A stretch of 38,386 nt of DNA from Patescibacteria group bacterium (GCA_018825365.1 JAHJEV010000003.1:68284-106669), one strand, 5' to 3'; numbered from the stretch's first letter, positions 3,024 to 35,984 are shown. The notes: generated by a model not told the origin, from the letters alone. Numbers and translations: made by a program.

Positions 3024-3105
3024 TAGTGGGCGAGAGAGGACTCGAACCTCCAACCTTTCGGATACGGTCCTAAGCCGTACGCGTATGCAATTTCACAACT
3101 TGCTC
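3024..3105 (-). pseudogene. Degenerate copy of tRNA-Leu(TAG)
   Basis: 3026-3088 is identical to 14221-14283 (63 bp). The CCA end reads CTA. The 5' part has 5 substitutions and 1 deletion, giving two A-C mismatches in the acceptor stem. Confidence 0.88.
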
Positions 3106-3173: not shown

Positions 3174-3202
3174 TGGTGGGCTATGTGTTAGGACGTGCGA
3201 AC
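3174..3202 (+). repeat. 29-bp cassette-boundary motif, copy A
   Basis: TGGTGGGCTATGTGTTAGGACGTGCGAAC. Confidence 0.85.
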
Positions 3203-3375
3203 TACGATACATGTAACGATTTGTTAGACTAAAGGTGTGGTATATAACCTGATTTTAAAAAATATATTTGGAAATAATGGTAGGATATTTGGGGAGTAGT
3301 TGTGAAACATTGTTAATTAAATCAGCCGACTTTTATTGTCAAGCGCAATTATCTGAGCTATAAGCTTATAGCATA

Positions 3376-4677
3376 ATGAATAACAAAGAAACTAAAAAAT
3401 CAATAGACTCTTGCCTGGAGGAAACATATCGTATACTCGACGCTCCCTCGGAAAAACTCATCTCTTTAAACTCCATGATCATAGAATTAATTGATAGAGG
3501 TTACTTAGATGATACACCTCGAAACAAATCTAAATACTGGACAACAATAACTTTTAGGGATGTATTTATAACAACAACGGTTAGCTCCAAACCCAGTATC
3601 GGTCTTAAAAAATGGGTGCCTTTTACATACAAAAGAAAATTAATCAACCGGCGTTATAGGTCTGTTTTCACAGAATTAGACAACGCAGTTAATCACCAAG
3701 AACAATTGGACCAAAATTTATTCAGGCATGTTCTAAGTTATGAAGAAATTAGTAAGCACTTTTTTTATTTAGCACCTGTATTTATTAGCCGATTTAAATC
3801 AAAAACAGAGATAATTCCTACTACAATATACCTGTATGGTGGCTTTGACTTTATTGGGTGGATACTACCTGAGAAAAACATTCTTTTTGACGATCATGAT
3901 AAATTAAGGGAATTTATTCAAGAAAATCAGCTTGAACCAGGTGATTTTATTGTATACTCTCCAAACACTCAAGACGCCACGGGTATAGATATTTATACCA
4001 CTTGGCAACGCGACATGGATAAATATTACCGTGAAGGAAAAAGAGATAAAATTGATTACATCTTAAGTCACGAAACAAAAATCTCTGTTCGTGACCTAGT
4101 GTACCTTTACCTGATTGAGCATAATTTTATTGCAGAGGATTCTGAAATCATTGCTTTTGTTCAAAAACATCGCCCACTAATTGGTAAAGCAACTATTATG
4201 GGTGCTATCAGCCAGTTCCGTCATCGTATAAAAACCACAAAAGTAGAATCTGCTGATTCTGCAAACGAACAATCTACTACACACGAATCGACAATCGACC
4301 CGAGATATTTACTAGCTATAATCCAGAAAAAAGATTTAGTCTACAAATACCTACAATCTAATGGTCCAGCTACTGCAGACCAAATTGCTGGTGCCATAGC
4401 AGAAATCATCGGAGTAACAAAACAAAAGCTTTTGTCTCTTACATTTATCGATCCTCAAGATTCCCGAATAATCCGACTTGAAACTGGTGAGTTTGCATTG
4501 GCTCCCCAATTAGCAGATAAAGAAAATAATCTATTACTTTCCCCGCCTCCGGATCCCATTACTGCTCCCCCCTTTGTTCAATCACGCGCTCTGAAGTATA
4601 CAAAAACTTTTTTAATTGCCATAATAACAGTGGTTTCTATTATTATCTTATTAATTATACGGTCTAAAAATATATGA
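3376..4677 (+). CDS. Hypothetical protein with probable winged-HTH (HARE-HTH-like) repeats and a C-terminal transmembrane anchor
   Basis: 433-aa ORF. Related segments VRDLVYLYLIEH and KDLVYKYLQSN...DSRIIRLETGEFAL; Pro-rich linker then FLIAIITVVSIIILLII-RSK. ATGA overlap with the next gene. Confidence 0.6.
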   Translation: MNNKETKKSIDSCLEETYRILDAPSEKLISLNSMIIELIDRGYLDDTPRNKSKYWTTITFRDVFITTTVSSKPSIGLKKWVPFTYKRKLINRRYRSVFTELDNAVNHQEQLDQNLFRHVLSYEEISKHFFYLAPVFISRFKSKTEIIPTTIYLYGGFDFIGWILPEKNILFDDHDKLREFIQENQLEPGDFIVYSPNTQDATGIDIYTTWQRDMDKYYREGKRDKIDYILSHETKISVRDLVYLYLIEHNFIAEDSEIIAFVQKHRPLIGKATIMGAISQFRHRIKTTKVESADSANEQSTTHESTIDPRYLLAIIQKKDLVYKYLQSNGPATADQIAGAIAEIIGVTKQKLLSLTFIDPQDSRIIRLETGEFALAPQLADKENNLLLSPPPDPITAPPFVQSRALKYTKTFLIAIITVVSIIILLIIRSKNI

Positions 4678-6410
4678 TATACACGTGTAAATGGAACACT
4701 GATAAAAACTCGTTACCGTTGCAGGATGACTTTAAACTCCAATTTAAAGCACAAAACCAGGATGATATTCCGCTCATTCTTATCGACGACAATGATAATA
4801 AACAAAGTGTTATATACAGTTACCCCAAAAACGCAATACACCTAAGCTCACTAGTTGACTGGATCAATGATTTTCAACCCAAAAAGAACGAAGTTATTGA
4901 GTTAGTACAAGTAACCGGTACAAGTTTTAAAATTCGCATCGGTAGCCGTGAATCAAACGATGCCGAAGGTATATATCTTGGTAAGTTGAAAGATAGTTAC
5001 GCTCAATATACATCCCACCGGAATTTTATTCTTCCAACAGAAGATTTAGTCACGCACACATTTATTTGCGGTGCGACTGGTTCAGGAAAAACGGTTTTGG
5101 GTAAGGCAATTGTCGAGGAACTTGCTTTAAAAGAAATACCAGCCATTATTGTGGATCTCAAAGGTGATTTAAGCTCCCTTGGCTTAATGGCACCCCAATA
5201 CACACCAGAAACAATTGGTTCGTGGATTAACACAGAGCCCTCCAAGAAAGAAGCTCTGTGCCAACAAAAAGTAAATGAAATCAATACAGGACTTGATGAG
5301 TTTGGTTTGACTTCTGAAAAAGTTAAAACTTACATCGATTCTTTAAGTGTTGCGGTTTTCACACCTAAAGCCGGAAAGGGTATTCACCTTTCGATTTCCT
5401 CACCTTTGGCAGCACCAAAAGATATTGCTTCCTTAATGCTCAGCGATCGTTCCGAAGTACTGGAAATGATCGGTTCGTATACAGATTCCTTTATAAGAAG
5501 CCTTTTTGCTGAAAGAAAAATTGGGCGTCTTGATAAGTACAAAACTTTCCTACATGAAATAGTCCAATACTGTTGGGAACACAGTATTTCTCTGAACGGT
5601 AAAGAAGGTTTAGTTACCGTTCAGCAAATGATTAATGAACCACCCTTCCGTGAAATCGGTGGTATGAACCTAAATAAATTTATTGATGACAAAATGAGGG
5701 TTGAACTTGCCAATCGCATAGCCATGTGTCTCACAGGAGTTGAACAATTGTGGTTTGAAGGTATTCCAATAAATATCCCTATGTTGCTTTCTCGACCAAC
5801 TGAACACGGGGATAAAACACCAGTAAGCATAGTTAACGTCTCCGATTTGCCATTTGACGAACAGATGTACGTCGTTTCACATTTGGCTTATTCCATCTAT
5901 AACTGGGCTAGGCCGCAAGGAGATTCAGGTGAAAAACCACGCATACTATTTTTTATTGATGAAATAGGAGGAGGAGGAGGTAAACAAGCGTTTTATCCAA
6001 GTCACCCGTATAACCCACCCTCGAAACCACCTTTAAATGTACTCCTAAAAAAAGGTCGAACCTTTGGAATTAGTTGTTTATTTGCTACACAAAACCCAGG
6101 CGATATAGACTATAAGGGTCTAAGTAACTGTGGAACCTGGTTTGTTGGTCGACTACAAACAGAACGTGATCGGAGAAAAATAATGGAGGGAATATCTACT
6201 GCAGAAATTCAAATCCAAAATATAAAGAATAAAATTGAAGATCTGTCCTTCAAAGAATTTCTAGTTAAAACTAAAGACGGTAAGGTGAATTTTGTTAAGG
6301 AACGATGGTTAGTAACCTACCACAAGACTCTTTCCGAAAATGATTTGTCCACTATTAATGGCCCGGAAATAAAAAAACACTTTCAAGAATGTGCAAAGAT
6401 AACCAGTTAA
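4674..6410 (+). CDS. HerA/FtsK-superfamily (DUF87/DUF853-like) ATPase
   Basis: Walker A GATGSGKT, VDLKGD, Walker B ILFFIDE, KGRTFG, ATQNPGDIDYK, WFVGRLQTERDR. Confidence 0.88.
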   Translation: MIYTCKWNTDKNSLPLQDDFKLQFKAQNQDDIPLILIDDNDNKQSVIYSYPKNAIHLSSLVDWINDFQPKKNEVIELVQVTGTSFKIRIGSRESNDAEGIYLGKLKDSYAQYTSHRNFILPTEDLVTHTFICGATGSGKTVLGKAIVEELALKEIPAIIVDLKGDLSSLGLMAPQYTPETIGSWINTEPSKKEALCQQKVNEINTGLDEFGLTSEKVKTYIDSLSVAVFTPKAGKGIHLSISSPLAAPKDIASLMLSDRSEVLEMIGSYTDSFIRSLFAERKIGRLDKYKTFLHEIVQYCWEHSISLNGKEGLVTVQQMINEPPFREIGGMNLNKFIDDKMRVELANRIAMCLTGVEQLWFEGIPINIPMLLSRPTEHGDKTPVSIVNVSDLPFDEQMYVVSHLAYSIYNWARPQGDSGEKPRILFFIDEIGGGGGKQAFYPSHPYNPPSKPPLNVLLKKGRTFGISCLFATQNPGDIDYKGLSNCGTWFVGRLQTERDRRKIMEGISTAEIQIQNIKNKIEDLSFKEFLVKTKDGKVNFVKERWLVTYHKTLSENDLSTINGPEIKKHFQECAKITS

Positions 6411-6442
6411 ATAACGCTTCTCTAAGACTTATTACCGACATC

Positions 6443-6471
6443 TGGTGGGCCATCTGACAGAATGTGCGAAC
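6443..6471 (+). repeat. 29-bp cassette-boundary motif, copy B
   Basis: TGGTGGGCCATCTGACAGAATGTGCGAAC, 32 bp after the ATPase stop codon. Confidence 0.9.
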
Positions 6472-6714
6472 CTGTTAGTTACAGGAAAGATTTAACAGGT
6501 GAGAGATGTTTAATACACATGAAGACCTGAAAAATGTGCCAAGTTGAAATATCTATTTTATAAATTACCACCAAATCTCTACGCTACTTTGGCTCGGCGG
6601 GGAATGTATCCCCCGTCTCATGTGAGATAAAGGAGTTTGTTACAAAAAACAAAATTGCATCCCTATTAGTAAGTCCCTATACGTTTTTTTCCACTTTTCT
6701 GAAAGACCGATGTT

Positions 6715-7005
6715 TTATTCTTCATCTTGAGTTAGATCTTGAATTTGATTAAGTACGATTTTATCCAACTCCACCCCTGCGGCTTGCTCTATTTGATCCA
6801 ATTCCAAACATAGTTTGTTGACCTCATTTATTCCATCGTCAATCTCTTTGCTAAGCTGGGCCATTTTTTGTTTCCTTTTTACATCTGAATCTGCGATAGA
6901 GTTTATCACTCCCCTAGCTTCACGAAGTAGCTTTTGTATAAGTTCATAAGACTCCTGATCATTTTGCGTATCTATTATGCTTGTATCTTTTTGTGTGTAA
7001 TCCAT
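6715..7005 (-). CDS. Small acidic coiled-coil hypothetical protein
   Basis: 96-aa ORF starting 6 nt after the stop of the 415-aa ORF; helical, D/E/Q-rich. Confidence 0.65.
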   Translation of the reverse strand: MDYTQKDTSIIDTQNDQESYELIQKLLREARGVINSIADSDVKRKQKMAQLSKEIDDGINEVNKLCLELDQIEQAAGVELDKIVLNQIQDLTQDEE

Positions 7006-7011
7006 ATTTAA

Positions 7012-8259
7012 TTATTCAGCGTCTAGAATCAATCCAGTTTTATATTTATATCTCCACAATACCCTTTTATACTCTAAATAGACGTCCTTGAAATTGGCTG
7101 TTGTCATTCTACTATCTTCCGGAAAATCGGTTATTCTAAGAAACTGTTTTAACTGTCTGGGTTTTATTATATCGCGTGCGTTTACCCCGTTTAGATTAGT
7201 AAGCTCTCTATTCCAATTTTCCACTAAATTATCAAGATCCCAAAGCTTCTGCTTCGAAGAAGTTTCTATTGCTTCTGGCATTACTTTTTCTTCTAGGTCT
7301 TTAACCCCCTGTATATACCTGGCCTCGTCTCTTTGTTTCAAAGCTTCTCGATTAGGGGGGTTTGCTGCATTTTGCTCTTTTATTTTCTCGAACTGCTCTC
7401 TTTTCGTTCTATAGGGCTCAGCCTTTTTTTCATCGATCTGCTGAATTCTCTCTTTTTGTTCTATTATCTCAAGCCTTAAATCAAATACATCCTTTTGTTC
7501 TTTTTCAGCAGCTTTCCTCCCTGTCTTTAAATGTCGCTCAATTTCTCTGATATCTTTTCTTGATACTCCCGCCTTTGTCTCCAAACGTTTTTTAATTTCT
7601 TCTATTTCATCGAGTTTAGCAACACTATCCTTGTGTTTAATTTCATCCACCTTAAGGTCTAGCTCCATAACATCGGCTGAAAGCTGGAGTTTGGAGATTT
7701 TATTCTCAATGGGTTCTAATCTTCCGTCGTAATACTCAATAAGTTTGTCAGCAATTGCATTTCTTTTTTCTATAAAGGTTGTCTTTTTTTCGACCCTTGC
7801 ATTGTATCTTGCCTGTTTTTTTTCTTTATCAAACTCCAGACGAATTTTCTCTTTTTCAATAGCGTTTAACCGTTTTTGAAGAGATGGTGTAATAACGCCC
7901 CTACCTGATAACTCCTGCATAGAAGATGTAATTTCAACGGATTTTTCGTCCAATTCACTGATCCGTCCGCCTACCTTGTTTATTCCATCTTTTATTAGAT
8001 TTGCTTTCTCATCATGCTTATCTACCCAAAACTGGTTATATGTGATTTTTAATCTACCAAGAATCCTATCTCCAATCTGCATTTTCTCGACATGCTCAAA
8101 AACGTCAGTCGCAAAATCTTTTGCTTTGCCGGATAAACTCTCGAATACTTCCTTCGCAGGACGGTCAAAAAAGTTCTGTACATCCTCTGCTGCGTATATT
8201 GCTCTATCGACAATATCTAAGGGCATAATATTAACTGTTGAAATTATAACCATACACAC
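7012..8259 (-). CDS. Long coiled-coil hypothetical protein (true start possibly ATG 8226)
   Basis: 415-aa K/E/R-rich ORF with heptad character; no catalytic motif recognised. Confidence 0.75.
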   Translation of the reverse strand: MCMVIISTVNIMPLDIVDRAIYAAEDVQNFFDRPAKEVFESLSGKAKDFATDVFEHVEKMQIGDRILGRLKITYNQFWVDKHDEKANLIKDGINKVGGRISELDEKSVEITSSMQELSGRGVITPSLQKRLNAIEKEKIRLEFDKEKKQARYNARVEKKTTFIEKRNAIADKLIEYYDGRLEPIENKISKLQLSADVMELDLKVDEIKHKDSVAKLDEIEEIKKRLETKAGVSRKDIREIERHLKTGRKAAEKEQKDVFDLRLEIIEQKERIQQIDEKKAEPYRTKREQFEKIKEQNAANPPNREALKQRDEARYIQGVKDLEEKVMPEAIETSSKQKLWDLDNLVENWNRELTNLNGVNARDIIKPRQLKQFLRITDFPEDSRMTTANFKDVYLEYKRVLWRYKYKTGLILDAE

Positions 8260-8331
8260 AGTTGTTTACAACAAAAACAATACAGAGAGCGAAAGACGTT
8301 AATAGATGTTTTTAATTTGATAAATTTTTTT

Positions 8332-8360
8332 TGGTGGGCCATCTGCCAGGATGTGCGAAC
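8332..8360 (+). repeat. 29-bp cassette-boundary motif, copy C
   Basis: TGGTGGGCCATCTGCCAGGATGTGCGAAC. Confidence 0.9.
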
Positions 8361-8401
8361 CACTACCTCCTGAGAATTCGTCAGTGCTGGCTAATTGCTG
8401 A

Positions 8402-8469
8402 AAACTGCGAAGTTACTTTAGTTGACAGGTTTGTGATTTTTAAATATATTTAAACTGCAAGTTAGTTTA
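8402..8469 (+). promoter_or_regulatory. Sigma70 promoter of the abiE operon flanked by candidate operator repeats
   Basis: TTGACA(8422)-17 nt-TATATT(8445). AAACTGCGAAGTTACTTTA (8402) and AAACTGCAAGTTAGTTTA (8452) lie on either side. Confidence 0.6.
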
Positions 8470-8490
8470 AAGCTAACATCCAGTAGGAAT

Positions 8491-9063
8491 ATGCAAAAAG
8501 GTGACTATTTAACTACCATACTAAGATCAACTAAAACTGTCCTAACTCTTAAGGACATTGCTCTTTTATGGCAGGATTCTGATACCAACGCCGCAAGAGT
8601 CAGACTTAACTATTACGTTAGAAGGGGGCATTTGTGTCGTGTCCGAAGAGGTTTGTATTCCAAAGATAAAAACTACAACAAACTAGAGTTAGCAACCCGC
8701 ATATTCACCCCGTCCTACATTAGTTTTGAGACGGTTCTTGCAAAAGAAGGATTGGTGTTTCAATACCAAACCCAAATTACGGTTGCGTCCTATTTAACAA
8801 GAGAAATTATTATCGATAACCAAACCTACTCCTATAGAAGTATTAAAGAACCTGTGCTTATAAATACCTTGGGGGTTGAGCTTTCTGACGAAATATCAAT
8901 TGCTACCAAAGAGCGTGCCTTTTTAGATACTTTGTATATAAATACCGATTATCATTTTGACAACCTTAGATCCCTAAATTGGGATAAAGTATTTTCGATA
9001 TTACCAATATATAAAAACAAGCGTATGACCGGAACAGTTAATAAATTATTTAAGCAATCATGA
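8491..9063 (+). CDS. abiEi: Type IV toxin-antitoxin antitoxin, AbiEi family
   Basis: N-terminal wHTH ending RVRRGLY, PSYISFETVL, IATKERAFLDTLY; overlaps the toxin gene by ATGA. Confidence 0.88.
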   Translation: MQKGDYLTTILRSTKTVLTLKDIALLWQDSDTNAARVRLNYYVRRGHLCRVRRGLYSKDKNYNKLELATRIFTPSYISFETVLAKEGLVFQYQTQITVASYLTREIIIDNQTYSYRSIKEPVLINTLGVELSDEISIATKERAFLDTLYINTDYHFDNLRSLNWDKVFSILPIYKNKRMTGTVNKLFKQS

Positions 9064-9755
9064 CCTTAGACATATCTCTACATAAGACGATCCTGTTTCA
9101 GATTTTGAAGGACATTTATTCTGATACCACGATCTCACCTTTTTTAGGGTTTAAAGGTGGTACTGCGGCATTGATGTTTTACAAACTTGACCGCTTTTCT
9201 GTGGATCTTGATTTTGATCTGTTGGATGAAAGTAAAGAAGATGAGGTTTTTGCTAAAGTTTTAAAAATTGCTGCTAAGTACGGTACGATAAAAGAATCAT
9301 ATAAGAAACGCTATAACTTGTTTTGTTTAATATCCTATGAGGATAAGGCTCGCAATATTAAGGTGGAGATAAACCGCAGACAGTTTGGATCAAAGTACGA
9401 AATGAAAACCTATTTAGGTATATCGATGCTGACAATGGTTTCTGAGGATATGTTTGCACACAAATTAATGGCTATGTATGAGAGAATGGGAAAGACGAGC
9501 CGTGATATTTACGATGTTTGGTTTTTTCTGTCTAACCGTTTTCCAATTAATAAAGAGATTGTGGAAAAACGCTCCAATATGCCATTTAAACAACTGATTC
9601 AAACGTGTATTTTACAACTAGAGAAAATTAATAATAACCGTATACTGGAAGGGCTTGGGGAACTGTTAACACCGAATCAAAAAGACTGGGCTAAAGCCAA
9701 ACTAAAAGAGGAAACAATAGCCTTACTAAAACTTCGTATAGAAGCAGAAAAATAA
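9060..9755 (+). CDS. abiEii: Type IV toxin-antitoxin toxin, AbiEii/AbiGii nucleotidyltransferase
   Basis: FKGGTA...RFSVDLDF, IKVEIN, AHKLMA, RDIYD motifs. Confidence 0.92.
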   Translation: MTLDISLHKTILFQILKDIYSDTTISPFLGFKGGTAALMFYKLDRFSVDLDFDLLDESKEDEVFAKVLKIAAKYGTIKESYKKRYNLFCLISYEDKARNIKVEINRRQFGSKYEMKTYLGISMLTMVSEDMFAHKLMAMYERMGKTSRDIYDVWFFLSNRFPINKEIVEKRSNMPFKQLIQTCILQLEKINNNRILEGLGELLTPNQKDWAKAKLKEETIALLKLRIEAEK

Positions 9756-9816
9756 TATCTGATAAATAAATTCCGGTGGGTTTAGCAAATATGAAGTTGT
9801 TATAACAATAAAAGCG

Positions 9817-9845
9817 TGGTGGGCCAAGTGTCAGGATGTGCGAAC
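9817..9845 (+). repeat. 29-bp cassette-boundary motif, copy D, with extended left arm from 9777
   Basis: TGGTGGGCCAAGTGTCAGGATGTGCGAAC preceded by AGTTGTTATAACAATAAAAGCG, nearly the same as the sequence abutting tRNA-Leu(TAA). Confidence 0.9.
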
Positions 9846-9957
9846 CAGCTTTTTTTGTGACGTTAGTTATAAGCTGTGTCACTGCAAGTCTAGGATCGTC
9901 TTAAACTCAACCCACCCCCCTCAACCGTCCAATAAACTGCTAATATTATAATACTCA

Positions 9958-11826
9958 ATGAAAAAGCTTAAGAAAATAATACTGCGCATATTTTCTTTAC
10001 TTTTGCTGTTAGCTTTCAGCGCTATTTTAGTTCTTTATTCAATCTCTTATTTAATCCAATGGAATGATGACCGTGTTTCAAATAAAGGCGCAGAGGTTGT
10101 TAATGTTGAGGTAATAAGAAAAGATAATGTCTTGATCGGTCAAATAACAAACAAAGATGACGTCTCTTCAAAAAATCTTGAAGTTGGTTTAGACAACGAA
10201 GCACCTATTAATGTTAAGGAGGACGGTACATTCAGAATCGAGGATATAAATAAGGGAAATAAACACCTTTTCTATATAAATGGATCGCTCAGCAAAAAAA
10301 TCGGCTGGGCCAATGTTTCAGCTAAAAATAACAAAACCACTGCATTTATAGTAAAGCGTCCGTTGGTGGATTTTACATTTGGAGCAGATACTTATAATGA
10401 CAAAAGTTTGTATTCAGCAATAAATCACTGGTCTTTAGATCGAAGTGAGCTGTTTTACATAAATTCCACTATTGTTGCAAATATGCTAAGCACGTTTTCT
10501 GCGAGAGCCGCCTACAAAATCGATAAGGCGTTTTTTGGCCGTTCTACTCCATTTGTGGAATTAACGGGGTTTAATCAAAAGTACTTTACTCACCTTGATG
10601 ATCATGTGGAAGATAATCCAGAGGAGGAGTACACACTCAACGATATATATGGGTATACCTACGACAAAGCTGGGGTTCTTTGGATGATTACACCTATTGA
10701 TACTGTTGAATTTGCGAATCAGTTTAGAAATCTTTACGGTTCCGGGGCTATGAGATGTGAGGGATTTGCATTGTGGGATGTTGCTATGCTGAGAATTCTT
10801 GGATACGGCGTTGATGAAGTTATTGTAGGTTCATTTAGAGGGTCGGTGGGTCATGTAGCCGTTATTGTTAATACATCTTTAGGAGCAAATTATTTACTCT
10901 CAAATCAGTATTTGTTTGACAAAGGTGGTGAGGCTGCCCCTGGTACTTCTAGGTTATATGGAGATCTTAAGCAAGCTGAAAATTTTGTGGTGGAAGACAC
11001 CGGTATAGATACTTTTGCTAATGATTTTTATAACGTTTTCACGCCCGAAGCTATTGTTAACAATATGCCTGTTGAAACCTTAAAAGACTATTATGATGTT
11101 TTCTCCGAAATGATAGGTCGCCAAGTTCCATTAGTAGAAAAAGAGGAAGATTACAACAAAAAGATCAAAGACGAACCTACAATATCAATTGAGGATTACT
11201 TAAAGCAATATACACAAAGTACCAGCAACCCGTACCCTGAAATAGACACGTCGATTTACTTAAATGGAAATTGGGTTACTTACCATAACACTCTTCAAAA
11301 AGAGATTTGGGAACTAGCTTCTTTATACCCCAAGAATTCCCCGTATGTATTAGCTAAATACAATAACCGATCGCTTTTTGTGTCGAGGCCGGAACTGTAC
11401 GCACAAGTTTCTTTGAAAGGAAACAAAGTTATTGATTTGGCAAAGACTGTTAGGTCCCCCAATGCGATACTTGCTTGGATTAGCAAAAACGTAAATATGC
11501 CGGTTTATACGGAAAACACTCAAATAATGCTTGCTGATGAGCCAATTGTTTTTTCTGCAGGAAGACCTCAGGATAAGGCTATGTTGGCTTTTACCTTGTT
11601 AAAATTGAACAACTACGAAGCAGAAATAGTAATCGCAGAGGATACAAGTTACGTATTATTTAAAGAGGGTGGGAAGGTAAAAGTTTGGGACATGGCTACA
11701 TTAAGCGAAACCGGGATCATAGCTGATAGAGTGCATATTGTGTTTAATGAAAGTAAAACCTACTACCCCAACGCAAACCGTTTTGACGAAATGCCTATCA
11801 ATTTTGTAGAATTAACCAAGAAATGA
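9958..11826 (+). CDS. Membrane-anchored protein with transglutaminase/papain-like domain(s)
   Basis: N-terminal TM helix, beta-rich Ig-like segment, GAMRCEGFA...LRILGY...GHVAV (Cys/His); second degenerate copy GRPQDKAMLAFTLLK. Confidence 0.65.
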   Translation: MKKLKKIILRIFSLLLLLAFSAILVLYSISYLIQWNDDRVSNKGAEVVNVEVIRKDNVLIGQITNKDDVSSKNLEVGLDNEAPINVKEDGTFRIEDINKGNKHLFYINGSLSKKIGWANVSAKNNKTTAFIVKRPLVDFTFGADTYNDKSLYSAINHWSLDRSELFYINSTIVANMLSTFSARAAYKIDKAFFGRSTPFVELTGFNQKYFTHLDDHVEDNPEEEYTLNDIYGYTYDKAGVLWMITPIDTVEFANQFRNLYGSGAMRCEGFALWDVAMLRILGYGVDEVIVGSFRGSVGHVAVIVNTSLGANYLLSNQYLFDKGGEAAPGTSRLYGDLKQAENFVVEDTGIDTFANDFYNVFTPEAIVNNMPVETLKDYYDVFSEMIGRQVPLVEKEEDYNKKIKDEPTISIEDYLKQYTQSTSNPYPEIDTSIYLNGNWVTYHNTLQKEIWELASLYPKNSPYVLAKYNNRSLFVSRPELYAQVSLKGNKVIDLAKTVRSPNAILAWISKNVNMPVYTENTQIMLADEPIVFSAGRPQDKAMLAFTLLKLNNYEAEIVIAEDTSYVLFKEGGKVKVWDMATLSETGIIADRVHIVFNESKTYYPNANRFDEMPINFVELTKK

Positions 11827-13289
11827 AATATACCAGGGGTGTTATCTATGTGCTTCTGTTTTCGCTTCCTATCCTTTTGATCGGATGCTTCCCTTCTGTA
11901 TTTGCCATGAAATCTAAAACGGACACCACGCCTGAAACCACAATTAAAAATCAAATAGTCTTGATTGATGGAGTACCTTTTTTCTGTAAAGATGCGAAGG
12001 ATGCTCAAGAAAAAGCTGACGCACTCTTTAAGCTTTATACGGAAACAGAGTGGGATGACCCGGCTGCCGCAGTTGCGGCAAGGCAAGGTGCCTCCAGTAT
12101 GATTCAAAGTGGCTACGTTTCCCCGGAACATAGGAGTGCTAACACGCCGGTTGCCTCGACGGTTTTTAATGCTGATCCGATAACTAGCAATACTGGTAAC
12201 TTTGGACCGGCAATCACAAGCATCCTACCGGGTAAGTCGATTAATTTGGGTGATACGGACGTGGCTAAGGGAATCGGTAATTCGGCGATTGGCATAGCTA
12301 CAACCAAACTAATTGTTGATGCGGCTAATAAACAAGCAGTTGCGTCAGGTGCCCTTCCCCAAGTGAGTCAGGCTGCACTAAGCGACGTCGCCAAACTTAC
12401 GGGAAAAATAAACACTGTAGCAACTGCGGTAGATATTTCAACCGCGGGGTTAGCCTATATACAGGCAAACGAGGCCTTTATTAAAAGTGGTCAGCCGGCG
12501 GCAGACCCGAAAACGGGCACACCAAATCTCCTATATGTAGATGCATCTAATAAACTAATGGATTTGGCAGCTGCAGTAGCCCCAGTGTATTACACACCAG
12601 TATTTAATATTATGAAAGATGCCGGCCAAGGTGTCGCCACTTTACAAATCGGTCAGTCGCCGACAACTGGAATTGGAAAAGCCGAACATAAAGTATTAAA
12701 GCTTTTTTCGAACTATGCTATAACAGATGCTGAAAAAGCAGCCGTAGGACTCAGCTCAAATGAGAAAGTGACACCACCATGCTATGGCCCCAGCGCTCCT
12801 GGGTGTATTAAGCGCTTGGCTATTGCAACTAAATGTCCCCTAAATTTTATAGTGACAGCGCCAGATGGAAAAAAAGCCGGTGTCGATCCCACAACCAAAA
12901 AAGTGGTGGAAGAAATACCGGGCTCTTTTGTTCTTGATGCAGATAACTATAATGTTGATAGCCAGATAGTTTACCTGCCGGCACTGCAATCAGGTGACTA
13001 TCAAATCACGGCAACGGGGTTTGGAAAAGGAGATTACAATCTATACTACAAAACGTTTGACGCCGACGGAAACGTGCTGACTAGCCAACAATCTAAAGGA
13101 AAGATCAGTAATGGCGAAGTATTGGGAGCGAAATTTAACCCAAATGCGGACAGTTTAGCACGAGATAGCGAAAAAATTGTTTTTGTAAAAGATGTGATTT
13201 ATAAATATATTCTTCCATCAGCTGGTTTTGTACTGATTGTGCTTGTCGTTTCATTTTTAGCTTTTCGGAAAAAGAGAAAAAGATTGTAA
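11823..13289 (+). CDS. Exported surface protein with C-terminal TM anchor and basic tail
   Basis: Signal-like N-terminus, Ala/Gly/Thr-rich middle, CPLNFIVTAPDGKKAG beta-sandwich domain, TM followed by RKKRKRL. ATGA overlap with the upstream gene. Confidence 0.7.
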   Translation: MKYTRGVIYVLLFSLPILLIGCFPSVFAMKSKTDTTPETTIKNQIVLIDGVPFFCKDAKDAQEKADALFKLYTETEWDDPAAAVAARQGASSMIQSGYVSPEHRSANTPVASTVFNADPITSNTGNFGPAITSILPGKSINLGDTDVAKGIGNSAIGIATTKLIVDAANKQAVASGALPQVSQAALSDVAKLTGKINTVATAVDISTAGLAYIQANEAFIKSGQPAADPKTGTPNLLYVDASNKLMDLAAAVAPVYYTPVFNIMKDAGQGVATLQIGQSPTTGIGKAEHKVLKLFSNYAITDAEKAAVGLSSNEKVTPPCYGPSAPGCIKRLAIATKCPLNFIVTAPDGKKAGVDPTTKKVVEEIPGSFVLDADNYNVDSQIVYLPALQSGDYQITATGFGKGDYNLYYKTFDADGNVLTSQQSKGKISNGEVLGAKFNPNADSLARDSEKIVFVKDVIYKYILPSAGFVLIVLVVSFLAFRKKRKRL

Positions 13290-13293
13290 TTTT

Positions 13294-13322
13294 AATAGGA
13301 TAGCTCGTCGCGATGTGCGAAC
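13294..13322 (+). repeat. Degenerate cassette-boundary motif, copy E (right arm intact)
   Basis: AATAGGATAGCTCGTCGCGATGTGCGAAC; the last 11 nt match the consensus exactly; sits between two cassettes. Confidence 0.65.
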
Positions 13323-13389
13323 TACCTTGACAAAAATAAATGTTAGTATGTTATCATTTTGAAGAGTGGGAATGACATTTTTTAACTAG

Positions 13390-14076
13390 ATGTTTAAAAA
13401 TAAAGAAAATACAGGTAACAAAACAGTAAGGGAAATGAGTTTAAAAACTGTTATTGGGTATATCTTCAACGCACTCATCCTGATTTTTTTCATCTTTTCA
13501 GGAGTTGTAACAGTTAAAGCGGGCCAGTTGGTTGTTGGTATACTCTATTATGTTTTAGCTGCCCTGGTCGTTGTGCCTCACCACCGCCTAAGAGTCACTA
13601 AATCTTTAAAATTTGTAATTCTCGTTATACTTTTCTTTATACTTACCATAATAAGTGGTGTTAATAACACACCTGATAAACAAAAGTATGACTATTTTAC
13701 CTTAGCGCAGGAATTTAATCTAAAATATGGAGGTAATACATACTCAATTGTGGTTAAAGATGTGCGACAGGAGACCAAAATTATCGTACAACAAAAAGAG
13801 GTAACCACATCCGGTTATTTTCTCATTGTTCGGGCGGATATTGTGAATCTTGGATCGGAATCCATAGATTTTAAGCTCGGAAAAAATCCCGAGTTAATAG
13901 ATAACCAGGATAGACGCTATACTTTATATGGCTCAAATATACCTGCGGGAAAATTGCAACCTAGTGTGGCTAAGGAGGTTTCCTATTTTTTTGAAATACC
14001 CAAGGATGCATCAGGCTTAAAATTTATCATTAAAGATGGATCTGTAGTTGCTAAATCTATAGATCTGAAAAGATAA
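13390..14076 (+). CDS. Membrane protein with DUF4352-like Ig-fold domain
   Basis: Three N-terminal hydrophobic helices, then GYFLIVRADIVNLG...LIDNQDRRY...LQPSV...FEIPKDA. Confidence 0.75.
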   Translation: MFKNKENTGNKTVREMSLKTVIGYIFNALILIFFIFSGVVTVKAGQLVVGILYYVLAALVVVPHHRLRVTKSLKFVILVILFFILTIISGVNNTPDKQKYDYFTLAQEFNLKYGGNTYSIVVKDVRQETKIIVQQKEVTTSGYFLIVRADIVNLGSESIDFKLGKNPELIDNQDRRYTLYGSNIPAGKLQPSVAKEVSYFFEIPKDASGLKFIIKDGSVVAKSIDLKR

Positions 14077-14218
14077 TCATACTGCTTTTCATCCGAGTCG
14101 TTAAATTTTCCTAGAAAAATAGTTGGATACTTGGTAGAGGTCGTGATTTAGTGGTTAGTTATTGGGAAAAAGTTTGAACCTTCGAACTACTTTATTTTGT
14201 TATAAAAACAAAAAGCCG

Positions 14219-14301
14219 TGGTGGGCGAGAGAGGACTCGAACCTCCAACCTTTCGGATACGGTCCTAAGCCGTACGCGTATGCCAATTCCGCCACTCGCC
14301 C
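14219..14301 (-). tRNA. tRNA-Leu(TAG)
   Basis: GGGCGAG/CTCGCCC acceptor stem, TACGG-CT-TAG-GA-CCGTA anticodon arm, long variable arm, GGTTCGAGTCC, encoded ACCA. Confidence 0.97.
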
Positions 14302-33563: not shown

Positions 33564-33592
33564 TGGTGGACCGAGTGTCAGGATGTGCAAAC
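33564..33592 (+). repeat. 29-bp cassette-boundary motif, copy F
   Basis: TGGTGGACCGAGTGTCAGGATGTGCAAAC. Confidence 0.85.
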
Positions 33593-33636: not shown

Positions 33637-34551
33637 GTGGAAACTCTTGAAGAAAAATTAAAGCGCGTTAAATTAGTTTTTAATATTGACGAAGTTATAA
33701 GCAGACGTACAAACCTGGATGATATTAAAAATTATTATAGGGTTAATATAATCCCCTATTTTCTTTTTCATAATAAACGAGACTTCGTTCATAATGGTAT
33801 ATCTAGAGGCAAAAGATATTCGGATAAAGATGTATATGAACAGCCCAAAATAGTAGAAAAATATATAAGAGAGATGGGTGCAAAAAGGTGTTTAGAATTA
33901 GCGACTGGAAAAGGAGCCTCAAGTTTTTATTTAGCAGAAATATTTCCCAACGTAAAATTCTTTGCTATTAATCTTGCTGACGGACAGTTAGAGATTGCTA
34001 AAAAGAAAGCCCGTCGAGTAGATAACTTCTTCCCAGAAGAAGGAGACTACCACGATTTAGGCAATTACCATGATAACGACTTTGATATAGTATTTGTGTT
34101 TGAGGCTCTTTGCCACAGCAATGACAAGGGAAAAGTCGCAAAGCAGGTATACAGACTGTTAAAGCAAGGTGGTTTGTTTATAGTCATTGATGGTTACTTA
34201 AATAAACCGTTAGGTGAACTTAGCGAAACCGAATTGTTAGCAAAAAAGCTTTCGGAAAGGGGGATAGTAGTAGAAAAATTCGAATTATATGACGATGTTA
34301 AGAAAGACATCGTTACAAAAGGTTTTCAAGTAATATATGAAAAGAATGCTTCTCTCTTGGTCCTACCTTCCTTGTATAGATTTGAGAAACTATCTCATGA
34401 AGTGCTTTTTAGAATTCCTTTGTTTGGAAAAATGATAGTCAAATTACTACCAAGAGATTTTGTTAATAACGCTTTGTCAGGTTACTTAATGCCCACTTTA
34501 ATCCAAACTAAAGTAGCTTGCTATTGCATCACTGTTTTTGAAAAGGTTTAG
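33637..34551 (+). CDS. Class I SAM-dependent methyltransferase (small-molecule/lipid type)
   Basis: CLELATGKG, GDYHDL, FDIVFVFEALCH, LKQGGLFIVID. Confidence 0.88.
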   Translation: METLEEKLKRVKLVFNIDEVISRRTNLDDIKNYYRVNIIPYFLFHNKRDFVHNGISRGKRYSDKDVYEQPKIVEKYIREMGAKRCLELATGKGASSFYLAEIFPNVKFFAINLADGQLEIAKKKARRVDNFFPEEGDYHDLGNYHDNDFDIVFVFEALCHSNDKGKVAKQVYRLLKQGGLFIVIDGYLNKPLGELSETELLAKKLSERGIVVEKFELYDDVKKDIVTKGFQVIYEKNASLLVLPSLYRFEKLSHEVLFRIPLFGKMIVKLLPRDFVNNALSGYLMPTLIQTKVACYCITVFEKV

Positions 34552-34586: not shown

Positions 34587-34615
34587 TGGTGGATCATCTG
34601 TCAGGATGTGCGAAC
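34587..34615 (+). repeat. 29-bp cassette-boundary motif, copy G, with extended left arm
   Basis: TGGTGGATCATCTGTCAGGATGTGCGAAC preceded by GTCGTTATGATAACCAAAAGTCG. Confidence 0.9.
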
Positions 34616-34662: not shown

Positions 34663-35805
34663 TTACTCTGGAATATTTAAGGCATCTCTAGTTTTGGGGT
34701 TCTTGATTCCTTTTCTACCCGCATCCACTCCGTGGGCATTGATACATCTATCAATATAGAAAAATAGATTTTCTAAAGTGCCCTCGTAAAGTTGGACACC
34801 TTCCTCATGCATGAGTTTCTTTCCAATAACAAGTGCTCGTGCCCAGGCATTACGTTCATGGAGAGCCGTAACAGTCGCTTGAAACTCGTCGCTTTCTTTA
34901 CTAAGACGATCGGCCACGACCTTTAGCTCACTTTTTACGCATTTCGAGATACCGTCCTGCGCTGTGTCCTGCCTATTTGCCTCAGTATGAGCATAGATTT
35001 CTCTTAGAATGTTTCGTGCCTGCTCATTCAACATATTTTCAAAATCAGCTAGCGAAACCCCCGTGGCCTCAACCCGACGGTTTAACGGATAATTAGCGTG
35101 CGCGGAAAGAGTTGTTTCAATAGAAATAAATTCATGTGTTTTCACTTCCAACAGATTATTTAGTCTTTCCTCAACTTGGGGATTTTTGTAATCTGGGTTT
35201 AAGCCGACAAAAGAGCCCAAACTATCTGAGTTTACATTAAGAAATAATTGTAATGCGCGGAACTGCTCTGAAATCAAACTCTCCTGTTGTCGTTCTTTGG
35301 CGTTTTCTACGTAATCCCATGCGTGTCCTATCTCATGTAATATAGCCAAAGAAGAATCTTTAGTCTCGCCAACTAACAAACCCGTTACCCCCTTTTCTTT
35401 AGCTACTGGCAAACCGATAATGTGCTCCATATCGAAGTAATAAGGACTCAATCCTTCACATTCGTTTATAGATTTAGGGTCCCCGTCCACACTAAGTACG
35501 CCAAGAAAAGTAACTCCACTCGGTAAATACTGGTTCAGGTTCACGTCTTTTATGTAGACCGAAAGCGCCTCTCCTACTCCGCCATGAATTTTTGCGCGGT
35601 CAACATAATGTCCAGCCTCTAGCGTAGCTTTACAATCATTCCAAAAATTTGTCATTAGCTGTTGGATTTTGGGAGCATCATATACCTCTCTACCAATGGA
35701 GTGGCGACTTTCGTTTTCTGCCAATATTTGTAACTCTTCATGTGTCATTTCATATTTCGAGTCGGTACCCATCTGCGTCGAAGGGAAAGTTGTTTCAGAG
35801 GTCAT
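34663..35805 (-). CDS. Hypothetical protein with zincin-like HEXXH motif
   Basis: AILHEIGHAW and distal HERNAWARAL. Confidence 0.65.
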   Translation of the reverse strand: MTSETTFPSTQMGTDSKYEMTHEELQILAENESRHSIGREVYDAPKIQQLMTNFWNDCKATLEAGHYVDRAKIHGGVGEALSVYIKDVNLNQYLPSGVTFLGVLSVDGDPKSINECEGLSPYYFDMEHIIGLPVAKEKGVTGLLVGETKDSSLAILHEIGHAWDYVENAKERQQESLISEQFRALQLFLNVNSDSLGSFVGLNPDYKNPQVEERLNNLLEVKTHEFISIETTLSAHANYPLNRRVEATGVSLADFENMLNEQARNILREIYAHTEANRQDTAQDGISKCVKSELKVVADRLSKESDEFQATVTALHERNAWARALVIGKKLMHEEGVQLYEGTLENLFFYIDRCINAHGVDAGRKGIKNPKTRDALNIPE

Positions 35806-35898
35806 AATTGCATTTTAGCATTGAAATTGGTGAAAAGTGCAACTCCTTCTTGTTCTTGGGTTTGCCGAAAGCGGAGTTGTTATAACAACCAAAAAGCG

Positions 35899-35984
35899 TG
35901 GTGGGCGAGGAGGGAGTCGAACCCTCATCAGCCGAAGCTGACGACATTTTAAGTGTCGCGTGTATGCCATTCCACCACTCGCCC
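35899..35984 (-). tRNA. tRNA-Leu(TAA)
   Basis: GGGCGAG/CTCGCCC acceptor, CGACA-CT-TAA-AA-TGTCG anticodon arm, long variable arm, ACCA. Confidence 0.97.

Follow-up and report, generated by a model that had tools for sequence, protein, structure and literature searches.

A 29-bp motif delimiting putative gene cassettes behind tRNA genes in a Patescibacteria group bacterium

Described systems and the arrays of the window

Integrons gather gene cassettes into arrays by means of attI and attC sites, and clusters of attC sites lacking an integrase (CALINs) are also known. The attC site is an imperfect palindrome of 57–141 nt that folds as a single strand, and integron cassettes are mostly promoterless and co-oriented with the promoter Pc. 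The dif modules are likewise integrase-less; they measure about 1–5 kb, are bounded by sites of about 28 bp with an 11-6-11 layout, are shuffled between replicons, and are presumed to be moved by the host enzymes XerC and XerD. Neighbouring pdif sites face in opposite directions, and their sequence is like that of the host's dif. Cis-mobilizable elements (CIMEs), and the modules of site-specific accretion in Streptococcus, are reportedly att-flanked and without an integrase, the recombinase being supplied by a related integrative and conjugative element or integrative and mobilizable element beside them. The present analysis concerns a 38,386-nt stretch of the genome of a Patescibacteria group bacterium (genome G000, contig C3, 68284-106669; hereafter the window), in which small gene cassettes are stacked in two arrays that are punctuated by a 29-bp motif and end at genes for tRNA-Leu.

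Patescibacteria (the candidate phyla radiation, CPR) have tiny genomes, with very few recombinase genes in this family, and the turnover of their accessory genes is poorly understood. The source is a groundwater bacterium with such a genome (732 kb, 38% GC, 4 contigs); related records are labelled Patescibacteria, candidate division WWE3 or 'Saccharibacteria'. Islands that build up in tandem at RNA genes include the Prochlorococcus tycheposons, which target tRNA genes and carry their own integrase and partial tRNA copies (bioRxiv 10.1101/2020.12.28.424599), and the Dehalococcoides ssrA islands, integrated at the transfer-messenger RNA (tmRNA) gene (PMC3146451). Xer-dependent dif modules of Acinetobacter plasmids, and IMEX elements, are treated in two further sources (PMC6449649, PMC13141974), and CIMEs and site-specific accretion in Streptococcus in another (PMC5704250). 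In the literature searched, supplements excluded, no description of a system like the present one was found for Patescibacteria/CPR or Katanobacteria.

The reading preferred here, to which a probability of roughly two in three is given, is a site-specific cassette system in which the motif is the site borne by each cassette of about 0.5–5.7 kb, the 3' end of certain tRNA genes is the entry site, and the recombinase acts in trans. Such a system works like an integron or the Xer/dif modules and enters like the tRNA-targeting islands, and it departs from each of them at its defining features. As a structure it is well supported; for its mechanism we infer conservative site-specific recombination through a circular intermediate, with crossover within the eight bases that motif and tRNA share.

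The motif consensus is TGGTGGGCCATCTGTCAGGATGTGCGAAC (29 bp). Scanning the window with three or fewer mismatches allowed returned the copies at 6443, 8332, 9817 and 34587, where none were expected from shuffles. At six or fewer mismatches the copies at 3174 and 33564 joined them, and all six full copies of the genome lie in the window on the + strand. A half-site scan added the degenerate copy at 13294-13322, with its right half (GATGTGCGAAC) intact and its left half lost, and an eighth, also degenerate, outside the window at C3:61241, 582 bp 3' of tRNA-Val(gac). Seven copies are thus found in the window (one of them degenerate) and eight in the genome, each 3' of a tRNA gene. All are intergenic, and the open reading frame (ORF) stops at 6410, 9755 and 13289 precede the next motif by 32, 61 and 4 bp. 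The motif opens with the octamer TGGTGGGC, which is the 3' end of tRNA-Leu(tag) (14219-14301) read in reverse complement. These scans bore out an earlier note on the window, which had described five co-oriented intergenic copies between 3174 and 13294, stops 4–61 bp ahead of the next copy in three cases, and an array ending at tRNA-Leu(tag) with whose 3' end the motif shares its first eight nucleotides. Absent from that note were a second array, formed by the copies at 33564 and 34587 and ending at tRNA-Leu(taa), and a pseudo-tRNA at 3026-3105.

The conserved block measures merely 29–31 bp and its flanks cannot be aligned, which ruled out a larger repeat or a miniature inverted-repeat transposable element. 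Five folds (motif ±10 nt) gave z-scores of −1.82 to +0.38, no better than shuffles, and Rfam returned tRNAs alone for the window, the motif matching no RNA family. An attC site, which the earlier note had wanted excluded, or any other structured site was rejected on these grounds; folding gave no attC-like hairpin. By inspection, the motif can be read as two imperfectly inverted arms in an 11-6-11 layout, 7 of the 11 arm positions agreeing; its sole hairpin is a 4-bp stem that is broken in several copies and uncompensated.

Each interval of the first array was found to hold a unit of one or two genes, as the earlier note had proposed. Motif copy 1 (3174-3202, +) stands farthest from the tRNA and, with 5 mismatches to the copy at 8332, has diverged more than any other full copy; it is followed by cassette A (3376-6410, +), in which the ORFs of a 433-aa protein without assignment and a HerA-like ATPase (578 aa) overlap. 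Motif copy 2 (6443-6471, +) precedes cassette B (6715-8259, −), which encodes proteins of 96 and 415 aa without family match; copy 3 (8332-8360, +) precedes cassette C (8491-9755, +), an AbiEi antitoxin and AbiEii toxin (PADLOC E values 2.3e-64 and 5.5e-82, also recognised by Pfam); and copy 4 (9817-9845, +) precedes cassette D (9958-13289, +), with overlapping ORFs for proteins of 622 and 488 aa that match no family. The degenerate copy (13294-13322, +), equally degenerate in the relative G013, precedes a DUF4352 protein of 228 aa (13390-14076, +; PF11611, E 1.6e-5, just under the curated cut-off), the remnant of the cassette nearest the tRNA. The intact tRNA-Leu(tag) (14219-14301, −), whose last eight nucleotides at 14219-14226 read TGGTGGGC on the + strand, forms the proximal end. 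The second array begins at the motif copy at 33564-33592 (+), its distal boundary, the left flank of which is conserved in two metagenome contigs with different cassettes. A cassette for a class I S-adenosylmethionine (SAM)-dependent methyltransferase (33637-34551, +; PF13847, E 4.9e-17), a motif copy (34587-34615, +), a cassette for a 380-aa protein without family match (34663-35805, −) and the proximal tRNA-Leu(taa) (35899-35984, −; 3' end also TGGTGGGC on the + strand) follow. Four genera, that of G000 and three others, have genes behind tRNA-Leu(taa), and these genes are unrelated from one genus to the next.

Breakpoints at the motif and the tRNA 3' end

For the tRNA count, arrays were oriented with the motif on the + strand and the first tRNA rightward within 6 kb was taken; near-duplicate loci within the count are L076/L050, L082/L066 and L079/window. 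All 27 arrays with an assembled end stop at a tRNA on the opposite strand whose 3' end is GCCCACCA or a one-base variant, with no counter-examples. Reverse-complemented, the 3' ends of these 27 tRNAs begin TGGTGG[G/A]. Those reading TGGTGGGC belong to Leu-tag, Leu-taa, Ile-gat and Val-gac, with TGGTGGGA in Tyr and TGGTGGAC in Ala-cgc, and one motif serves all six tRNA species. Adjacent tRNAs with other 3' ends (Pro, Arg, Gly) carried no array. Among relatives in the genus, nine loci show the flank 3' of tRNA-Leu(tag) and eight different flanks are found there; they differ up to the last base of the tRNA, and the other side is syntenic.

The motif and the tRNA end also delimit the segments that are exchanged between strains. 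In G013, contig C44 carries a version of cassette D that is 89.7% identical over 4.4 kb and has a motif on either side. Homology runs from the first base of the motif at 9817 to 14226, eight bases into the tRNA; at this point the G013 contig shows a full motif, after which cassette B begins. A second contig of this genome, C26, agrees with the end of cassette B exactly as far as 8360, where the motif ends, and carries other DNA beyond it. The metagenome contig L079 is 98.9% identical to B-C, and to the left of B it carries the flank that precedes D in G013. Three cassette orders were therefore read, A-B-C-D-tRNA in G000, Z-B-C in L079 and Z-D-B-X in G013, with cassette B behind a different left neighbour in L079 and G013. 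When the 250 bp left of 125 junctions were clustered, four clusters joined one left flank to a tRNA in some genomes and to the motif in others, and three further clusters combined the same flank and motif with different cassettes, one of these flanks being the chromosomal flank of the tRNA-Leu(taa) array of the window.

Runs X3–X6 are assembled contigs from four other studies and were used for presence and joins, not for frequencies, which contigs do not give. They cover cassettes B, C and D; across 3205-6408 cassette A has a depth of 0 in X3, X5 and X6 and never exceeds 0.81 in X4. Cover in both X3 and X4 sets in exactly where motif copy 2 begins, at 6443, and the X3 contig goes on for about 1 kb of dissimilar sequence. 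In X5 a joint of 14150 to 6443 gives the order D-B, and the contigs of X6 diverge just before 14219. Strain comparison, as the earlier note had anticipated, thus places the ends of variable segments exactly at the motif or the tRNA end. Its proposal of serial addition at the tRNA held in part: cassettes are stacked there, but insertion also takes place elsewhere, a relative having D between two other cassettes.

Two joints were recorded and not used as evidence. In X3, 8360 is joined to 14218 with a side of 29 letters only, which sets a motif copy directly against the start of tRNA-Leu(tag) and may reflect either a cassette position that is empty or an artefact of mapping. The joint of 13293 to 14101 in X5 (side 21) is weak and a mere hint for the degenerate copy. 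Uncovered parts other than cassette A were likewise left out of the evidence.

In the proposed mechanism the entry site would be the last 8 bp of tRNA genes ending in GCCCACCA, with one-base variants in Tyr and Ala. A circular cassette would recombine with the tRNA 3' end through the shared TGGTGGGC, and integration would leave an intact tRNA proximally and a full motif distally. Repeated integration would stack cassettes, and recombination of motif with motif could insert, delete or reorder them. Because the tRNA is intact and the homology at alternative junctions ends there, the crossover of motif with tRNA would have to lie inside the shared 8 bp or at their border. The core of the earlier note, non-autonomous cassettes delimited by the motif and entering at a tRNA 3' end, is supported by the tRNA rule, the breakpoints, the lack of an attC-like hairpin and the cassette ORFs, among which no homologue of the three recombinases of G000 was found.

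The same exchanges could be imagined without a dedicated site, if the motif served primarily as a protein-binding or regulatory element and shuffling proceeded by homologous or microhomology recombination after DNA uptake, the tRNA providing a second anchor. We regard this as unlikely. It would fit the failure to find a recombinase and a junction conserved on one side only, and a GTTGTTATAACAAC-like palindrome located 9–13 bp left of 19 of 74 motif junctions and 9 of 37 tRNA junctions (background 0.7%) hints at functions other than recombination. The exchanges between motif and tRNA share 8 bp, however, which is far below the need of RecA-type recombination, and yet they are seen in four independent clusters and at six tRNA species. 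The motif is also confined to tRNA 3' flanks, whereas a general regulatory site would occur elsewhere, and it has neither a significant fold nor an Rfam match.

Distribution of the motif was determined in 61 relatives, 86 family genomes (51 genera), 185,579 species genomes, and metagenome and viral contigs. It was present in 8 of the 61 relatives and in 23 of the 86 family genomes, belonging to 14 of 51 genera; reversed-pattern controls gave 0/61 and 0/86. The species genomes yielded 21 matching stretches, all in metagenome-assembled genomes labelled Patescibacteria or WWE3, and 29 metagenome contigs matched the pattern. Its occurrence is limited to a single family. An identical 29-mer occurs in several genera and the 21 non-tRNA bases are nearly invariant across the 14; flanking proteins common to motif loci are few and 27–59% identical. 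The full pattern had no match in viral contigs, and two partial patterns returned 27 and 63 viral stretches whose full-motif scores all stayed below 28 (maximum 26.4); the six full copies of G000 score 34.6 or more. A phage or plasmid attachment site (attP) was rejected on these figures.

A derivation from tRNA has also to be weighed. The best tRNA alignment of the motif is with the 3' end of tRNA-Val(cac) of G000 (23 identities, 3 short gaps; score 33 vs a median of 16 over 49 tRNAs), and by this comparison it looks as though the motif descends from an att site of tRNA origin but has ceased to be a piece of tRNA. A genuine tRNA repeat lies 68 bp left of the first motif. This is the pseudo-tRNA at 3026..3105 (−; ARAGORN), in which an unrelated 5' part precedes a copy of some 63 nt from the 3' portion of tRNA-Leu(tag); it forms a direct repeat with 14219-14282 and reaches 33 bits as an Rfam tRNA vs 55 bits for the real tRNA-Leu(tag). 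The repeat shows that a tRNA-targeting element of the classical type has separately inserted here as well, which is a caveat to the cassette reading.

It is accordingly conceivable, although quite unlikely, that the intervals are remnants of classical tRNA-targeting or tycheposon-like islands in decay and that the motif is a diverged att scar of a tRNA 3' end. The alignment with tRNA-Val(cac) and the 63-nt repeat would both be explained, as would the 21–22-nt tRNA-Leu repeats that flank an insert of about 170 bp in three relatives, and tandem accretion with partial tRNAs is described for tycheposons (bioRxiv 10.1101/2020.12.28.424599). Yet none of 90 ORFs in 55 cassettes resembles the tyrosine or serine recombinases of G000, and the median cassette of about 1 kb is too small for an integrase plus cargo. 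Near invariance of 21 non-tRNA bases across 14 genera would not be expected of scars, nor does one motif for six tRNA species suit them, and the recurrence of the same cassettes in new orders points to ongoing exchange, not decay.

Like tycheposons and ssrA islands, the present arrays are flexible islands of streamlined genomes in which the 3' part of a tRNA or tmRNA gene is targeted and newcomers push older units outward. Unlike them, in which an integrase and partial tRNA copies of about 20–40 nt are carried, no recombinase was found in the 55 cassettes. The arrays differ further in that the motif has no more than 8 nt in common with the tRNA, its remaining 21 nt forming a dedicated non-tRNA arm, and in that one site serves six tRNA species; the true 63-nt tRNA repeat occurs once, at 3026, separate from the motif.

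Cassette content and candidate enzymes

The cassette set comprised 55 intervals with 90 ORFs of at least 60 aa. Cassettes range from 88 bp to 5.7 kb (median about 1.0 kb) and usually hold one or two genes. ORFs lie on the motif strand in 43 cases and on the opposite strand in 47, from which it follows that expression is not integron-like, with no common promoter. The 90 ORFs fall into 56 singletons and 16 small clusters, and 75 of them match 69 Pfam families. Among the families listed are S51, S41 and M23 peptidases, radical SAM, the metallo-beta-lactamase fold, nucleotidyltransferases, GNAT, NUDIX, HD, AdoMet synthetase and AbiEii, and the cargo thus includes defence systems (AbiE, HerA-type ATPase), nucleotide-modifying enzymes and peptidases. 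Searching the 90 ORFs by phmmer with the three tyrosine and serine recombinases of G000 gave nothing at E<=10, and no recombinase is among the 25 Pfam families listed of the 69 matched.

The likeness to an integron lies in small, very diverse and individually mobile cassettes that carry one site each, bring no recombinase with them and pile up at a single point of entry into the chromosome. The differences are a conserved, unfolded 29-bp site in place of a structured attC of 57–141 nt, an entry site that is a tRNA 3' end and of which a genome has several, ORFs running both ways, and no IntI adjoining the array. The arrays are not regarded as integrons because they have neither an attC hairpin nor an adjacent integrase.

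Two tyrosine recombinases (PF00589) were found in G000, at C3:1085 and C3:451739, at least 67 kb from the arrays; both are Xer-like and score below the equivalog cut-offs, and their genes span C3:548-1702 and C3:451394-452266. Irrespective of the motif, 78 of the 86 genomes of the family have at least two such matches, and the other eight have one. The two Xer-like proteins are the leading candidates for the trans-acting enzyme; a recombinase on a mobile element not binned with these genomes is the alternative. With Xer/dif modules the arrays have in common integrase-less units bounded by short sites and Xer-like recombinases in the host, and by this analogy Xer proteins may act here. Unlike those of pdif modules, all sites here are direct repeats in the chromosome, located behind tRNAs, and G000 yielded no dif-like site to match them. 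A dif search with a generic pattern, which may not be the dif of this lineage, gave no exact match and scattered one-mismatch matches in G000, and the cumulative GC skew of C3 indicated no usable terminus near the window.

No integrase stands beside any array at the loci examined. Integrase-less modules at a tRNA-type site with a recombinase from another element would recall CIMEs, from which the arrays differ in that no adjacent integrase, helper element or attP-bearing phage was found. The single large serine recombinase of G000 has an internal stop and lies at a contig end. As the enzyme, serine recombinases showed no clear link to the motif (18 of 23 motif-bearing genomes vs 36 of 63 others, p 0.08), and five motif-bearing genomes (G027, G013, G008, G068, G074) have none. 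One rve gene was found in G000, at C3:24450; the search of that genome gave no match to IS110 (PF01548), DDE_Tnp_1 (PF01609) or the TnpB zinc ribbon (PF07282). A recombinase acting in trans, as suggested in the earlier note, agrees with the failure to find one in the cassettes, but the enzyme itself was not found, which is a caveat to the cassette reading.

Transposition of the 'peel and paste' type offers a different enzyme. Non-autonomous elements resembling IS200/IS605 would be moved in trans by an HUH/Y1 transposase with GCCCACCA on the tRNA strand as target, and the right end of the element would finish with the same octamer and so create the next target. Insertion exactly after the last base of the tRNA in a single orientation agrees with this, as does the palindrome 9–13 nt from the junction at some cassette ends. 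Y1_Tnp genes are present in 14 of 23 motif-bearing genomes vs 17 of 63 others (Fisher p 0.005, a test that ignores relatedness). In G000 the single IS200-like Y1 transposase (C3:361456-361890, outside the window, between an HU-like gene and dnaJ) has an upstream (left) hairpin containing AGGAATTGCGAAC, two mismatches from the right arm of the motif. This explanation is nevertheless very unlikely. The 4-bp hairpin of the motif is broken in several copies and no fold exceeds shuffles; the palindrome is found at about a quarter of junctions (28/111), so that the conserved subterminal hairpins at both ends of IS200/IS605-type elements are not seen; and five motif-bearing genomes lack a Y1 gene (G027, G023, G084, G102, G105), two of the five being nearly closed.

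Several results weigh against the cassette system. The Xer-like pair is equally present in the 63 motif-less genomes and no recombinase tracks the motif, contrary to the co-occurrence looked for in the earlier note, and no other dif-like site with motif-like arms was found in G000. A divergent recombinase may remain among the cassette ORFs, as 25 of their 69 Pfam families are listed. A core site of a tyrosine recombinase normally has two inverted binding arms; that the sequence shows no overall conservation to the left of the shared 8 bp would be unusual for such a site. In 28 of the 55 arrays the contig or fetched locus ends before any tRNA, so that the rule that the motif stands only 3' of matching tRNAs covers the 27 resolved arrays. 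The circular junctions and empty sites that the earlier note had suggested were not seen in contigs (as distinct from reads), and no unoccupied tRNA-Leu(taa) flank was found in 13 genomes of the genus. Finally, motif variants compared in 8 same-left and 9 same-right pairs had mismatches at the same variable positions in both sets, and this sharing does not place the crossover of motif with motif.

A 29-bp site and a defined set of tRNA 3' ends account for the hypervariable regions across a family, provide a testable sequence rule for locating flexible genes in metagenomes, and would explain recurrent assembly breaks at these loci. It is possible, if doubtful, that cassettes of any function circulate among genera without carrying or adjoining a dedicated integrase. 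If a housekeeping recombinase drives the system, integron-like gene capture would extend to a lineage and a type of site for which it is unreported, and the short site with its tRNA target could serve as a compact recombination pair.

Neighbouring genes and minor observations

To the left of the first array, and outside it, is a restriction-modification pair consisting of an N4/N6 DNA methylase (578-1858, +; PF01555, E 1.2e-33) and a BstXI-like endonuclease (1862-2962, −; PF09552, E 9.6e-31; PADLOC REase_II). The pseudo-tRNA separates this pair from the first motif.

Short-read assembly of relatives is frequently interrupted at tRNA-Leu(tag), or at the motif or no more than a few dozen bases from it, as in G012:C57 (position 1), G007:C40 (position 27), G007:C27 (end) and G013:C44. 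These breaks fit strain heterogeneity at such points.

At 24 of 111 junctions a module of about 65 bp was noted, which consists of AAGTTCGA.TCC..CTTGGGT, about 10 nt, a GTTGTTATAACAAC-like palindrome, and 9–13 nt to the junction. Examples are found at 35835-35898 in the window and in L085, L086, L089 and L078. It is possibly a further element of the recombination site, or else a leader that these cassette ends have in common. For the stretch AAGTTCGA..TTGGGT, a tRNA fragment, a coding C-terminus and a ribosome-binding leader were considered, and none fitted all copies.

The non-coding insert of about 170 bp mentioned above was found in L047 (G001, about 13767-13935), L043 (G007:C40) and L050 (G010:C40). 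It starts with the last 22 nt of tRNA-Leu(tag), ends in ...GGCTAACGGGAACTTTCA, and holds an inverted copy of part of its tRNA piece. The insert adjoins the tRNA in G001 and G010 and the motif in G007; judged by its position, it appears to behave as a cassette that starts with a tRNA fragment instead of the motif.

On the 5' side of tRNA-Leu(tag), two or three extra partial copies of the 5' part, spaced by about 100–140 bp, were observed in several relatives in the genus (G005:C13, G006:C20, G007:C29, G009:C5, G010:C40), with none in G000. Two tRNA-Ile(gat) genes of G000 (C1:125492 and C1:126975) lie 1.4 kb apart, both end in TGGTGGGT, and are identical over the 25 3'-terminal nucleotides shown; the pair may represent another insertion with target duplication. 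ARAGORN also reported a tRNA with anticodon TTA, which would read the stop codon UAA, at C3:121165 of G000, outside the window, and one with anticodon CTA on metagenome contig L081 (1202-1277), between tRNA-Leu(taa) and tRNA-Gly; suppressor tRNAs and miscalls are both possible.

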